From sequence record NC_041937.1: 64,000 nucleotides of DNA. One strand, 5' to 3'. Of the stretch, positions 24,620 through 29,606 are shown one piece after another. The notes under the pieces were generated by a model. The model saw only the letters and a program-made list of their open reading frames with translations. It ran no database searches and was not told the DNA's origin. This stretch comes from Escherichia phage V18. Both the position numbers and the translations under genes were made by a program. Each line of letters begins with the position of its first letter. Positions within the stretch are counted from its first letter, which is position 1.

Positions 24620-24694
24620 TGGTGGCCCTGGGTGGAATTGAACCACCGTCTGGCGATTATGAGTCGCTTGCTTGAACCTTCCAGCTACAGGGCA
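24620..24694 (-). tRNA. tRNA-Met (anticodon CAT)
   Basis: Hand-folded cloverleaf: anticodon loop CTCATAA, T-arm GGTGG-TTCAATT-CCACC, encoded CCA; position 1:72 is a T:C mismatch. Confidence 0.6.
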
Positions 24695-24770
24695 TGGTGC
24701 TGATAGCAGGACTCGAACCTGCAACCTATTGATTACAAATCAATTGCACTACCAATTGTGCTACATCAGC
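24695..24770 (-). tRNA. tRNA-Thr (anticodon TGT)
   Basis: Acceptor GCTGATG/TATCAGC, D-arm GCAC/GTGC, anticodon stem ATTGA/TCAAT with loop TTTGTAA, T-arm GCAGG-TTCGAGT-CCTGC, CCA encoded. Confidence 0.7.
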
Positions 24771-24867
24771 AAAAAGGTGCTAGGTGATGGAATCGAACCA
24801 CCTATGTATTCAACGACCAATAGATTTACAGTCTACACCGCTACCTCTACGGGATAACTCCCCAATT
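24771..24867 (-). tRNA. tRNA-like element with Tyr(GUA)-type anticodon arm; acceptor stem not resolved
   Basis: Anticodon arm GTAGA-CTGTAAA-TCTAT and T-arm GGTGG-TTCGATT-CCATC present, long variable region, but 5' and 3' ends do not pair; may be degenerate or mis-folded by me. Confidence 0.3.
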
Positions 24868-24942
24868 TGGCACCCCGTACTGGACTCGAACCAGTGTCAA
24901 CGGCTTAGAAGGCCGCTGCTTTATCCACTAAGCTAACAGGGC
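24868..24942 (-). tRNA. tRNA-Arg (anticodon TCT)
   Basis: Acceptor GCCCTGT/ACGGGGT with G:U pairs, D-arm GCTT/AAGC, anticodon stem GCGGC/GCCGT with loop CTTCTAA, T-arm ACTGG-TTCGAGT-CCAGT, CCA encoded. Confidence 0.65.
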
Positions 24943-25434: not shown

Positions 25435-25721
25435 GTTCGCCGCAGGGGTGTATTCCCTGCGACTTGCCCAGCGTCCTGGACCAGCAAGACCCAACAAGTG
25501 GGTTACCAGAGCACATTACCGCGCTTTGGCTCGACCTTATTACAGGTTGGCTGGGGTCACATCGTCATGTGCTGGCTGCCCCTACCATTTTAAGTGTGGT
25601 GCACTATCAAGCCCTCTAAGGGGAACTCAGTCTTCTCCGAACCCTGTTTCAAAACATCCGGAGATAAAGCCATCAAATTCATCTTTAAATCGGATATTCA
25701 TCATGATACACGAAAACAACC

Positions 25722-26240: not shown

Positions 26241-26819
26241 TCAGCGTTCATAATAAATCTTATTTAACATTACCTCATCCTTTGCAGAGAGAATACCGAG
26301 ATATGCATCACCGAACCTACCTGCAACAACCTCTACATGATACATCACTTCGTTAATATCGTCAAGAGTGATAACTGGATGACCGTATCTCTCTGAGTAT
26401 TGTCTCAGAGTGCGATGTAGGGAATCATCATCGTAGGCAGACTTTTTAATATCACAAACACGACGAATAGCCTTGATGTCGAAAAACCCTGTGCGATACC
26501 AACCAAGAAAAAGGTTTCGTACAGTGTCAACACCTACATCAACACCGTCAAGAACCTTATCTACAAGATAACTGTCATCCTTTGGACCTGCTTCCTTAGT
26601 GCGAATGTAGTTGCCATCTTTTCCAGGTGACATCTCCTTCTCATCACCAACCTGAATACCATCATTTGGTGGTGTTAACCACTTATCCGGATGCTTACGA
26701 TCACGAGCGTTAGAATGATTACGCTGGAAACCTGGCTTCCACTTGAAAGTTTTCTCCATCTGTTCTTCATTCTGATAACGTTTTGCAATCTTTTCACGGT
26801 CATCTTTGCGTGGACTCAT
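26241..26819 (-). CDS. hypothetical protein
   Basis: 192 aa ORF with good coding composition; no motif recognised. Confidence 0.5.
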   Translation of the reverse strand: MSPRKDDREKIAKRYQNEEQMEKTFKWKPGFQRNHSNARDRKHPDKWLTPPNDGIQVGDEKEMSPGKDGNYIRTKEAGPKDDSYLVDKVLDGVDVGVDTVRNLFLGWYRTGFFDIKAIRRVCDIKKSAYDDDSLHRTLRQYSERYGHPVITLDDINEVMYHVEVVAGRFGDAYLGILSAKDEVMLNKIYYER

Positions 26820-27180
26820 AGCTGCCTCCTCTTCAAGTTATAGAAAAACTCACTGTATCGCTTTGTAACGAGCTTTTCTATCAAACTGGTGCGATTGCCT
26901 TACCTGGTATAGTTTATATAGCTGTGGAGCGATTTAGGGGCCTTCTTGTCCGTTTCCACACATAAACTTCATCCAAGCTCGCGCGGGAGACTCTCAACCG
27001 ACTCCTTACGGCGCTGGCAAGCTTTCGTCGGTGGTCCACATCAGTGCTCGGCCTTTGGCCTGCGCTATCGCTTCGCTCCCACACATGTTAACAGACCTGC
27101 ATGTATGCACTTCTGTTATTGTGTGCACCCGGGAGGCCCGGCATCTCGCCCCTCGTAGCGAGTGCCAATGAAGGGCCGAC

Positions 27181-27320
27181 ACTACCCGTAGTAAGTAATA
27201 AATTTAAAACATAGTACTTAGGATCTAGTATATTCTACATAAGTTAAGTATATGTACTTAGTACCATAAGTACTAGATCTTTTATTTTTTATTATTTAGT
27301 TATTTTAGTTATATTCTTTA
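27181..27320. other. AT-rich tract with short repeats (possible DNA unwinding element)
   Basis: Strongly AT-rich; repeated GTACTTAG / AGTACT words and tandem TTATTTTAG; lies between GC-rich segment and palindromic repeats. Confidence 0.4.
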
Positions 27321-27322
27321 TG

Positions 27323-27382
27323 TGTCCGTATCACGGACAGTTAGTGTCCGTATGACGGACAGTAGTGTCCGTATCACGGACA
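27323..27382. repeat. three phased palindromic repeats (iteron/operator-like array)
   Basis: TGTCCGTATCACGGACA at 27323-27339 and 27366-27382, TGTCCGTATGACGGACA at 27345-27361; 7 bp arms, 3 bp centre, 21-22 bp phasing. Confidence 0.7.
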
Positions 27383-27457
27383 GTTACTAACCTCTGTTCC
27401 ATAGCGAACATAAAACATACGAATCCTTATAGTACAGATATTTAAGTTTTTACTGGT

Positions 27458-27808
27458 CTAACCAGTTGTTGACATTCGAATAACTTCTTCTGGTGGCAAA
27501 ACTTTGGAAAATGTGCATCTTTTACCTCTCCCTTGTGTGGATATTTCAACCACTCCTGCACATTCTAAAGTTTTAACGCACGCTGCTGCTTTTGTTTTCT
27601 TTATCCCAATATCTGCTGCAATTTTCCTTGTGCTGGGCGTGAAGCGTGAATTTCCTCCAAGCTTATACCAGTTGTGCAGGTAGCAGTATACGATCTTGTC
27701 ATATAAGTCAAGAACAACAACCTCACCAGTTGTGTCATTCAAAACTTTTGACATAGACAGTATTTCAAGGGGGACTTTAAGATATAGCAGCTTATCCCCA
27801 TCTTTCAT
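27458..27808 (-). CDS. small winged-helix DNA-binding protein (putative regulator or initiator)
   Basis: 116 aa; FTPSTRKIAADIGIKKTKAAACVKTLECAGVVEIS resembles a wHTH recognition region; 3' end lies about 75 bp from three palindromic repeats. Confidence 0.5.
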   Translation of the reverse strand: MKDGDKLLYLKVPLEILSMSKVLNDTTGEVVVLDLYDKIVYCYLHNWYKLGGNSRFTPSTRKIAADIGIKKTKAAACVKTLECAGVVEISTQGRGKRCTFSKVLPPEEVIRMSTTG

Positions 27809-27855
27809 ATCTCCTGATTCTCCTTGTGTGGCAATTTTCTTTAAAATAGCAGGGA

Positions 27856-28410
27856 TTACTCCCCGCTGTCAATAGCAAGACTCATTGCAATACGGTATGC
27901 CTCTTCTAATGGTAAGAGTCTCCCCCACACATCCCAACCGACATCAAACTGCCTGCCAAACAACTGCTGTGTGGTTCCGTGAGCATGACCGAACAGTTGG
28001 ACCGATCCGTGAGGCTTTCTGTTCCACTTTGCAAACTGGTAATGGCTCATACAGATCAAATTCTTGTTGTGGCGAAGCTCGTAATAATCTACAACCTCAT
28101 GACCGAACTCTTTCATAATTCTGACAGTCGTCCTTGTGTCATGGTTACCACGAACAAGAATAATATGTCCGTTCAACATATTTAGAACATCTGGGAGCAA
28201 TTTGTTAATATTCTTATCATTAGTGCACGCAATATCTCCTAAGTGAAACACAGTGTCTGCAGGTGACACAACAGAGTTCCACTTGGTGATGATCCCCGCA
28301 TTCATACTGTCAAGATTGTGATCATACTGAGATCTGTGTTTTTGACATGAGTCAAACTCCATGACCCGCTGGTGGAGAAAGTGTGTGTCGCTTGTTACAA
28401 AGTATTTCAT
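27856..28410 (-). CDS. calcineurin-like metallophosphoesterase (putative polynucleotide 3'/2',3'-phosphatase)
   Basis: Start at ATG 28410 (MKYFVTSDTHFLHQ) with GAGGA RBS; motifs DTHF, HLGDIA, RGNHD, GHAH. Confidence 0.65.
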   Translation of the reverse strand: MKYFVTSDTHFLHQRVMEFDSCQKHRSQYDHNLDSMNAGIITKWNSVVSPADTVFHLGDIACTNDKNINKLLPDVLNMLNGHIILVRGNHDTRTTVRIMKEFGHEVVDYYELRHNKNLICMSHYQFAKWNRKPHGSVQLFGHAHGTTQQLFGRQFDVGWDVWGRLLPLEEAYRIAMSLAIDSGE

Positions 28411-28928: not shown

Positions 28929-29606
28929 ATGACAAATGAGGAACGTATGATGAAGTATTTTAATGCAGACGACCTAGTTGACAAAGGTCTTGTAACCAGC
29001 AGATATTACACAGATCTTGGGTTAAAGATCTATAAATATGCCAGAAAAGTATTTTACAACAATTTATGGCATTTGTCCCCTCGTTTACTGGAGTGCCGAG
29101 GCATTGTTGTCGGTAATGAAGGAAATGTTGTGGCATGGCCCTTCACAAAAGTGTTTAACTTGGGAGAAAACTCCACCAACCTGTCTGACAATAAGCTTGT
29201 GACGGCGGTAGAGAAAAAGAACGGATTCCTTGGTGTGGTATCATCTCATAAAGGTGAACTATTGTTCTCAACAACCGGATCTCTTGATTCTCCATATTGT
29301 AACCTCGCAAAGGAAACCATCCAGGAGCAATGTGGTAATTTAGATCTTATCAAGAAGGTTATGGGCAATGAAAACATGACATTCATGTTTGAAATTTGTC
29401 ACCCTTCAGATCCGCATATTGTTCAGGAAGATCATGGCGCATATTTGATAGGTTGCAGGTATAATGATTCTGGAATAATGCTACCAGAGGCAGCTTTAGA
29501 TGGGATTGCCAAATACCTTGGTGCAAAACGTCCTCACACTGTGCGTGAAATTCCGTTCAGCTATGCAAAAGAATTGGCTGCAGAAACAAGAGGTGAAGGT
29601 ATATGA
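28929..29606 (+). CDS. putative RNA/DNA ligase-like nucleotidyltransferase
   Basis: 225 aa; candidate motif I lysine in VEKKNGFLGV (KxNG); divergent from kinase/phosphatase operon; assignment tentative. Confidence 0.45.
   Translation: MTNEERMMKYFNADDLVDKGLVTSRYYTDLGLKIYKYARKVFYNNLWHLSPRLLECRGIVVGNEGNVVAWPFTKVFNLGENSTNLSDNKLVTAVEKKNGFLGVVSSHKGELLFSTTGSLDSPYCNLAKETIQEQCGNLDLIKKVMGNENMTFMFEICHPSDPHIVQEDHGAYLIGCRYNDSGIMLPEAALDGIAKYLGAKRPHTVREIPFSYAKELAAETRGEGI

Follow-up and report, generated by a model that had tools for sequence, protein, structure and literature searches.

The window analyzed here, a 64-kb stretch of DNA from Escherichia phage V18 (NC_041937.1), contains at positions 26820–27457 a gene-free region, hereafter the hub, which lies between a gene for a 192-amino-acid (aa) protein and a gene for a 116-aa winged-helix protein (Table 1). 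Window genes from ~23.7 to 28.9 kb are all encoded on the minus strand, with plus-strand genes beginning at 28,929. The source of the window is an rV5-like coliphage of the genus Vequintavirus, and 117 phage records match the region at 88–99% identity. We find that the hub is a composite, putatively cis-acting region with two separable parts: Part A (27184–27808), an AT-rich tract and an array of palindromic repeats together with the winged-helix gene, and Part B (26927–27183), a GC-rich block of hairpins that is shared with a set of plasmid-like elements of Escherichia coli.

Table 1. Features of the hub and its flanking genes, in window coordinates (a strand is given for genes and promoters).
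Feature	Position	Strand	Details
192-aa gene	26241–26819	-	From the list of open reading frames; phrog_12226 (function unknown); immediately downstream of the hub in the minus sense
Left spacer and 5' leader of the 192-aa gene	26820–26926		Complement of a Shine-Dalgarno sequence (26825–26831), inverted repeat, GTGCGATTGCCTTACCTG
GC block (Part B)	26927–27183		Chain of short GC-rich hairpins separated by CCACACA or CCCACACA
68-nucleotide core, irregular hairpin	26976–27043		Arms 26989–26992/27033–27036 and 26997–27002/27027–27032
Variable hairpin cassettes	27044–27125		GGCC-TTT-GGCC at 27050–27060; CCCACACA at 27078–27085
3' hairpin module	27135–27177		GGCCCGGCATCTCGCC...GCGAGTGCC...GGGCC; shared with NZ_CP020521.1; two compensatory pair changes
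AT-rich tract	27184–27320		21% GC; inverted repeat, inner palindrome (27245–27260), two GATC sites, T-run
Three 21–22-bp repeats	27322–27343, 27344–27365, 27365–27386		Spacing 22 and 21 nucleotides; each with a 17-bp palindrome
Spacer from repeats to winged-helix stop codon	27387–27457		Last repeat ends 72 nucleotides from the stop
Winged-helix protein gene, 116 aa	27458–27808	-	Resembles a replication-initiator N-terminal domain
Sigma-70-like promoter	27843–27872	-	TTGACA-18-TATTTT with TG; upstream of the winged-helix gene

A first-pass annotation, made from the sequence alone, had described the hub as noncoding, with a GC-rich block followed by an AT-rich tract, and both descriptions hold. 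Open reading frames (ORFs) within 26820–27457 are mechanical only, at most 70 aa long, and the relatives differ from one another here by a 1-nucleotide (nt) indel, by 18- and 21-nt deletions and by the gain or loss of 21–22-nt repeat units, so that no reading frame is conserved and homologous phages carry no conserved protein gene across the region. The small "hypothetical proteins" annotated in some GenBank records are therefore unsupported and not credible. GC content is 58.1% at 26940–27180 and 21.4% at 27181–27320, compared to 43.4% for the window as a whole.

Three palindromes had also been reported in the first pass at 21–22-bp spacing, some 75 bp from the stop codon of the winged-helix gene, and these too are present, in the tandem repeats at 27322–27386. 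The palindrome TGTCCGT-NNN-ACGGACA occurs three times where 0.08 occurrences are expected by chance, and nowhere else in the 64 kb. Within the genus, the number of repeat units ranges from two (phage navn) to six (O157 typing phage 14). The adjoining AT-rich tract contains a 9-bp perfect inverted repeat (GATCTAGTA / TACTAGATC, 27222–27230 / 27271–27279), a plus-strand T-run (27280–27297) and GATC sites in excess of chance (two vs. 0.24 expected). It is a candidate unwinding element, and its plus strand also looks terminator-like. Eighteen GenBank records in the MG0656xx series titled "Campylobacter phage" (e.g. MG065658.1, MG065672.1) are 93–98% identical to the coliphage region and seem to be rV5-like sequences under a wrong name. 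In MG065672.1, a contig ends at the repeats; this was considered as a physical genome end and rejected, as sister records of equal length start elsewhere.

That the neighboring gene encodes a winged-helix DNA-binding protein, as first proposed, is borne out by a Pfam HTH_36 match at threshold (25.1 bits vs. a cut-off of 25, a borderline pass) and by fold and PHROG matches to initiator N-terminal domains; DUF6945 falls just under its cut-off (27.1 bits vs. 28). The 116-aa protein makes up its own PHROG, phrog_12838 "replication initiation protein" (3e-80), with weaker matches to phrogs 8102, 428 and 270 over the N-terminal ~100 residues of longer "replication initiation" PHROGs; these PHROG names, like HTH_36, are annotations and not tested functions. 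A Foldseek search with the AlphaFold2 model (mean pLDDT, the predicted local distance difference test score, 70) placed 4ro3, a Vibrio domain of unknown function, nearest, followed by the RepA_N iteron-binding N-terminal domains 4pql, 4pt7 and 5kbj (E ~1e-3, template modeling [TM] score ~0.5), ahead of LexA and other regulators. A phmmer search of the Protein Data Bank (PDB) returned the same order, with RepA_N at E ~0.9. The protein matches neither the Pfam RepA_N model nor the two-domain architecture of that family, and the likeness is limited to the DNA-binding domain. The protein family is tiny, with five 90%-identity clusters in 5.8 billion proteins and twelve matches in a full HMMER scan, and even by that scan the winged-helix and flanking proteins have almost no relatives outside the genus. 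The 192-aa protein is likewise genus-restricted, with tblastn matches in Vequintavirus records only.

An iteron-type origin is expected to combine tandem, helix-phased repeats of ~17–22 bp, an AT-rich tract beside them and an adjacent cognate initiator that co-varies with the repeats. The first two are found in the window, where each repeat unit is palindromic and the neighboring tract has less than half the GC content of the window as a whole, and the third is seen, by sequence, in three divergent lineages. A divergent 137-kb contig (L009) matches the window in the 192-aa gene (84% nt identity), the GC block (82%) and the phosphoesterase gene (89%), and everything between the GC block and the phosphoesterase gene is replaced (46% identity, equivalent to random). 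The replacement consists of a pyrimidine-rich AT tract, four to five palindromes of the type TGATRCA-N-TGYATCA and a different winged-helix protein of 143 aa, whose gene abuts the palindromes. Proteus phage Mydo (Mydovirus) carries a 105-aa protein (phrog_8102 "replication initiation protein," 7e-36) with inverted repeats and an AT tract containing GATC. In Salmonella phage SSE121 (Seunavirus), two to three 22-nt units that contain ATTCCC-N4-5-GGGAAT are spaced 24 nt apart, and the AT tract has four GATC sites vs. 0.17 expected. GATC clusters thus occur in both SSE121 and Mydo, and the motif TATATTCTACA (27229–27239) is common to the window and SSE121. The Mydo and SSE121 modules sit at the divergent-transcription point of each genome. 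In SSE121 (NC_027351.1), the winged-helix gene is an unannotated 120-aa ORF (minus strand, 1782–2144 of our SSE121 extract, L294) inside a 709-bp gap shown as gene-free; its product belongs to phrog_8453, with weak DnaD-like and initiator matches.

The winged-helix proteins of these four lineages align over a common winged-helix core, and the co-variation of protein and repeats among the lineages is therefore indirect but consistent evidence that the protein binds the repeats, which we infer to be putative binding sites of the adjacent gene product. As far as sequence comparison goes, the winged-helix gene, repeats and AT tract behave as one exchangeable cassette. The iteron-type architecture outlined in the first-pass annotation thus stands for these three elements, which are replaced together in L009, but does not extend to the GC block, which lies outside the module: no counterpart of the block was found in Mydo or SSE121, and because it is absent from these other genera, the block stands apart from the rest of the hub as an element of its own.

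In the complete genome of the relative RudolfGeigy, the hub lies 1.0–2.0 kb inside a long co-directional unit that begins at the divergent-transcription point. In order, this unit holds genes for polynucleotide kinase and phosphoesterase, then the winged-helix gene and the hub, next the 192-aa gene and tRNAs, and finally the genes for lysis and terminase together with all structural genes. The cumulative GC-skew minimum of the window is at ~28–29 kb. In RudolfGeigy, the skew changes sign at 47.5, 54.5, 94.5 and 132.5 kb, with the main minimum at 132.5 kb and the hub at 133.6–134.3 kb. The skew inflection suggested in the first pass as a check on an origin is therefore present, ~1.5 kb from the cassette and at the divergent-transcription point, but it coincides with a switch of coding strand.

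Within Part B, the short perfect hairpins recorded in the first pass are present, including GGCC-TTT-GGCC (27050–27060) and AACAGA...TCTGTT (27090–27117), the latter enclosed by a longer hairpin, CACACA...TGTGTG (27080–27125). Two relatives have an 18-nt deletion here and still retain a CACACATG/CATGTGTG hairpin. Rfam 15 returned only chance-level matches on the hub at gathering and permissive thresholds (rli43, 27.9 bits vs. 100), with tRNAs as the only above-threshold matches elsewhere in the window, and none on the plasmid version of the block. Several candidate identities for the block were rejected: a repetitive extragenic palindromic (REP) or enterobacterial repetitive intergenic consensus (ERIC) type host repeat, since the block has no copy in any E. 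coli chromosome; a fold like the hepatitis delta virus (HDV) ribozyme, assessed by eye, as the helices misfit; a small ORF following AAGGAG on the minus strand, likewise assessed by eye, which is not conserved in the plasmids; and coding potential in general, in view of the indels and because the plasmids differ from the phage solely within helix arms that are complementary to each other.

When E. coli genomes were searched sensitively with the block, it matched unannotated DNA of circular "plasmids" of 13.2–13.9 kb and never a chromosome. Our set of these plasmid-like elements comprises L005 (NZ_CP020521.1), L004, L006–L008, L225, L237, L296–L298, NZ_AP045055.1, NZ_CP074841.1 and NZ_JBUCKS010000006.1. 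The elements carry genes for a major capsid protein, a neck protein, a Dit-like tail-tube initiator, a tape-measure protein of 700 aa and Rep-like proteins of 290–305 aa, with no terminase or portal gene found among them, and their tail proteins are 48–57% identical to those of the phage over aligned stretches. They are present in 7 of 5,426 complete E. coli genomes, as well as in two metagenome contigs and in assemblies of sequencing runs, and the main cluster of their capsid proteins has 441 member sequences. No relatives of the capsid protein were found in IMG/VR. Exact-pattern scans of IMG/VR, GTDB genomes and Joint Genome Institute (JGI) metagenomes gave mostly chance matches, along with one divergent phage, three more rV5-like contigs and two plasmids. 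One record, NZ_CP043822.1 (p3RM10740, 39,610 bp; includes L004), contains three copies of the block at about three times the unit length and looks like a trimer of the 13.2-kb element.

When the plasmids are compared to the whole phage genome, the block is the strongest nucleotide match (84–87% identity); the others are short matches in homologous structural genes and a 47-nt stretch in an unannotated gap. This gap, at 91,805–94,337 of the RudolfGeigy genome (MZ501102.1; 41806–44336 of our extract L292), is 2.5 kb without annotated genes at a convergent point and at the GC-skew maximum, and the 47 nt match the Rep-like gene region of the plasmids at 85–87%. Beside the block, the 18-nt motif GTGCGATTGCCTTACCTG (26889–26906) returns in the plasmids as CAGGTAATGCAATTGCAC, identical at 16 of 18 positions and in the opposite orientation; it flanks the block on the same side in phage and plasmids. 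The plasmid block has the promoter region of the Rep-like operon to one side and an AT-rich segment to the other, and this segment is followed by arrays of 22–23-nt iterons. Three plasmid iteron types track the N-terminal 150 residues of the Rep-like protein (91–95% identity within a type, 16–46% between types), and this protein has a weak HTH_36 signature like that of the phage 116-aa protein. Core type is independent of iteron type. In both kinds of replicon, therefore, a constant hairpin array stands beside a variable pair of initiator and repeats.

Comparison of phage and plasmid copies shows that the block has a base-paired structure. The core sequences are nearly identical except in two mutually complementary segments, ACCGAC/GTCGGT in the phage and GCTGCC/GGCAGC in the plasmids, and the 24-nt core loop, TCCTT[A/C]CGGCGCTGGCAAGCTTTC, is invariant among phage and plasmids apart from the one A/C position. 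Three of the six pairs of the core helix are altered on both sides, with 98% of cells paired compared to 38–74% in slid controls, and the helix stacked on it (an RNAalifold extension) occurs in A-U, G-U and G-C states, with one A-C. Pairing of GCGCGGGA (26981–26988) with bases of the core loop is possible. With a covariance model of the core, each phage genome and each plasmid of the matching core type yields exactly one match. Outside the core, the plasmids differ from one another in the small hairpins of their cassettes by several replacements of one Watson-Crick pair with another, and hairpin cassettes are shuffled between plasmids and phage, so the block evolves through module exchange. 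Compensatory changes across the hairpins indicate that the block works as a folded single strand. A single-strand initiation signal would combine structurally conserved hairpins with strand-specific priming on single-stranded DNA; of the hairpins seen here, many have three-base G-N-A loops on the plus strand.

Which strand is active is less clear. The plus strand is favored by the G-N-A loops and by what ends the block on that strand: textbook terminators (an 11-bp stem followed by a T-run) in most plasmids, a hairpin and T-run in L009, and in the window a 9-bp AT-rich hairpin with TTTTATTTTTT, so that the order of block, terminator and repeats is alike in three lineages. Another pair follows an A-U, G-U, G-C path on this strand. 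In favor of the minus strand, one small hairpin follows a C-G, U-G, U-A path, and two L009 transitions keep pairing solely via G-U there. Minus-strand read-through from the winged-helix promoter is likely, because no minus-strand terminator was found between that promoter and the 192-aa gene. Folding energies and z-scores do not discriminate between the strands.

The terminator-like plus-strand ends seen in all three lineages would suit a stand-alone structured RNA gene, a chance neighbor of the Part A module that is exchanged by recombination and useful to phage and plasmid alike in their common host, whether as a decoy or sponge for a host or defense protein or as a Rho-loading C-rich RNA. 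The absence of the block from other genera that carry the module, the mosaic exchange of cassettes among phage and plasmids and the nearly invariant 24-nt loop, which suggests a specific partner, are consistent with such an RNA. However, no conserved promoter, Rfam relative or partner was found for it, and the placement of the block on the same side of AT-rich DNA and protein-binding repeats in both replicons would have to be coincidence, and we consider an independent RNA distinctly unlikely.

The reading toward which we lean, tentatively, is that Part A is an iteron-type origin module and Part B an initiator-independent auxiliary single-strand element. Dimers of the 116-aa protein would bind the 21–22-bp palindromic repeat array, which is phased at about two helical turns; binding would load or distort the adjacent 21% GC tract with its GATC sites, which would melt, and the phage's own primase/helicase and polymerase would then take over. 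Part B may act as RNA, transcribed on the plus strand toward the AT tract and stopped at the T-run, or alternatively as DNA, its strands exposed upon opening of the tract, and in either form its role would be auxiliary to the origin, e.g. as a priming or loading signal or an activating transcript. Independence from the initiator would explain both why the block stays constant while initiator and repeats are swapped and why the plasmid-like elements keep it beside different iterons of their own. The order of block, plus-strand T-run or terminator and repeats that is shared by the window, L009 and the plasmids also speaks for an origin of this composition.

Several observations weigh against it. 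The 116-aa protein is a single DNA-binding domain, with no helicase, primase or loader-recruiting domain. DnaA boxes (TTWTNCACA), a frequent though not a universal component of such origins, are absent from 26820–27457, with 7 in the window compared to 8.4 expected. All four skew sign changes are coding-strand switches, and the skew near the hub therefore fits an origin but is weak evidence only. The module can do without the block, since the block is absent from the genera of Mydo and SSE121; promoter scans gave none for it that is conserved across lineages, including one for a phage plus-strand transcript, and the wobble-pair evidence on its active strand conflicts, one lineage pointing to each strand. 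Of the plasmids examined, about a third (three) carry a different, non-alignable core of the same general shape, which matches none of 50,697 phage records. Each repeat is palindromic, which is more usual for an operator than for a classical iteron, and the Mydo and SSE121 repeats are placed between divergent promoters, immediately 5' of the winged-helix gene, an arrangement that fits autoregulation equally. An operator for autoregulation would overlap the promoter of its own gene; in the window, the repeats lie 3' of the stop codon, at the opposite end of the gene from the promoter-like site.

The main alternative, also put forward in the first pass, is a transcriptional switch, in which the winged-helix protein would be a repressor or activator, the palindromes its operators and the AT tract a promoter/UP-element region. 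The block, read on the minus strand, would then form a structured leader, with a role e.g. in processive antitermination or in stability, at the start of the long unit that extends from the 192-aa gene and the tRNAs to the lysis, terminase and structural genes, and the plasmids would have copied it so that their minus-strand tape-measure operon is expressed upon phage infection. The hub does head a co-directional unit of ~50 kb, with the sigma-70-like promoter upstream of the winged-helix gene and no minus-strand terminator through the hub, and the plasmid block also lies upstream, in the minus sense, of the operon that ends in the tape-measure gene. Yet the plasmids have a sigma-70 promoter of their own between block and operon, and the strong plus-strand terminators at the far end of their block argue for transcription in the other direction, set against the two L009 transitions that keep G-U pairs solely on the minus strand. 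The 7-3-7 palindrome in each repeat is typical of dimer operators, and the position of the Mydo and SSE121 repeats also favors a switch, but two to six copies are unusual for an operator, and the best functional matches of the 116-aa protein are initiators. Finally, the promoter TGnTAAAAT(A), which recurs after late-region terminators, has no exact minus-strand copy in the hub. On balance, we regard a switch as somewhat unlikely. The recurrent promoter itself was seen in late intergenic gaps of RudolfGeigy (L291; genes as in window 1–23,700), where a strong intrinsic terminator precedes an extended -10 promoter, TGnTAAAAT(A) or TGnTACAAT, the probable promoter consensus of the phage. The T4-type late promoter TATAAATA is not enriched, and none lies within the hub.

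The gene content of the plasmids invites a further explanation for the block, namely that it is or contains the start site of a headful terminase, copied by elements that have capsid, tape-measure, Dit-like and neck proteins and yet no terminase or portal, so that the phage packages them. Vequintaviruses are reported to package by the headful mechanism and to be circularly permuted (PMC8407724, PMC13211470), the gene for the terminase large subunit is found ~4.5 kb downstream of the hub in the same direction of transcription, and the block is 84–87% identical between phage and plasmids, whereas the shared proteins are only 48–57% identical. Packaging piracy of this kind nevertheless seems very improbable to us. 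The compensatory hairpin changes indicate a folded single strand, which is unexpected for a duplex terminase site; plasmids with the second core lack the shared core and nonetheless have near-identical structural genes, with that second core unmatched in the 50,697 phage records; the block is missing from other Vequintavirinae genera; and no gene for a small terminase subunit, in or next to which a pac site would be expected, was identified nearby.

Whatever the role of the block, the plasmid-like elements look like extrachromosomal satellites of rV5-like phages. It is possible, if doubtful, that the block represents a class of modular hairpin arrays not described before, with RNA or single-stranded DNA as the active form, by which a family of undescribed satellites exploits the replication or packaging machinery of the phage; were the elements satellites, the alternative cores would be variants that differ in specificity, products of a phage–satellite arms race. 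A literature search found no paper describing the plasmid-like elements, and nothing relevant on satellites, origins, RNAs or transcriptomes of the genus. In the P2/P4 pairs of helper and satellite, cis sites such as cos and late-promoter activator sites are shared, and the case here is alike in that a small replicon with few structural genes keeps a noncoding sequence nearly identical to that of a large phage. Unlike P4, the elements described here are extrachromosomal circles of 13–14 kb associated with a virulent myovirus, and the shared sequence is a hairpin array instead of a duplex cos site.

Among known origins, Part A most resembles the RepA_N iteron origins of the staphylococcal plasmids pSK41 and pTZ2162 (4pql, 4pt7, 5kbj), with which it has in common ~22-bp tandem repeats, a winged-helix domain that would bind them as a dimer and an adjacent gene for the putative initiator; RepA_N N-terminal domains rank first among PDB entries of known function for both the model and the sequence of the phage protein. 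The phage protein differs in being only 116 aa, without the C-terminal domain that recruits the host replication machinery and without a match to Pfam RepA_N, its repeats are palindromic and outside the gene, and the Foldseek similarity is modest. The oriV of RSF1010/IncQ plasmids is made up of initiator-binding repeats, an AT-rich tract and conserved single-strand hairpins, the priming signals ssiA and ssiB, that are recognized by a dedicated primase. The hub has the same order of parts, but has no sequence similarity to oriV, and the phage block is much longer, modular and missing from sister genera that have the module. ColE1 RNA II and the phage T4 origins oriF and oriG are examples of transcript-primed origins, and the block, plus-strand T-run and AT tract of the hub have the topology of a structured transcript directed at an origin; no promoter was found for the phage block, nor signs of an RNase H site or R-loop, and it has no sequence or Rfam similarity to those systems. 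The architecture of Part A is a variant of a known origin or operator region, with an unusually small, single-domain putative initiator in a swappable cassette, and for Part B and the plasmid-like elements that share it we found no described counterpart in the literature searched.

The rV5-like phages are in wide use in therapy and biocontrol collections and still lack a defined replication origin or master control region. The cassette, with its initiator-like protein, repeats and AT tract, is swappable and conserved in three genera, and is a precise and testable origin candidate. The GC block, in turn, is a structured noncoding element with no known relatives, and it ties a virulent myovirus to small plasmid-like elements bearing genes for phage capsid and tail proteins. 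If these are satellites, they would be of a new kind, extrachromosomal and dependent on a virulent helper, and a search for the mechanism of piracy would naturally start with the shared block.

Additional noncoding features were observed in and around the hub. The leader of the 192-aa gene contains a 12-nt inverted repeat, ATAGAAAAACTC / GAGCTTTTCTAT (26840–26851 / 26870–26881), which is kept even in L009 and may be a translational or stability element; CCACACAAGGAG shows no enrichment as a general leader motif. The tRNA cluster at 24620–24942 of the window has only three genes (Met/Ile-type CAT, Thr, Arg) with a gap of ~100 nt at 24771–24867, the same cluster has six or seven genes in the relatives nomine and RudolfGeigy, and a tRNA/tmRNA scan of the window found nothing beyond this cluster. 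A second noncoding GC-rich block (52–55% GC) occupies 25440–25700, with an 80-aa gene to one side and, to the other, the strong promoter of a 112-aa gene (TTGACA-17-TAAAAT). This block matches neither an Rfam family nor the plasmids, and could be another structured RNA.

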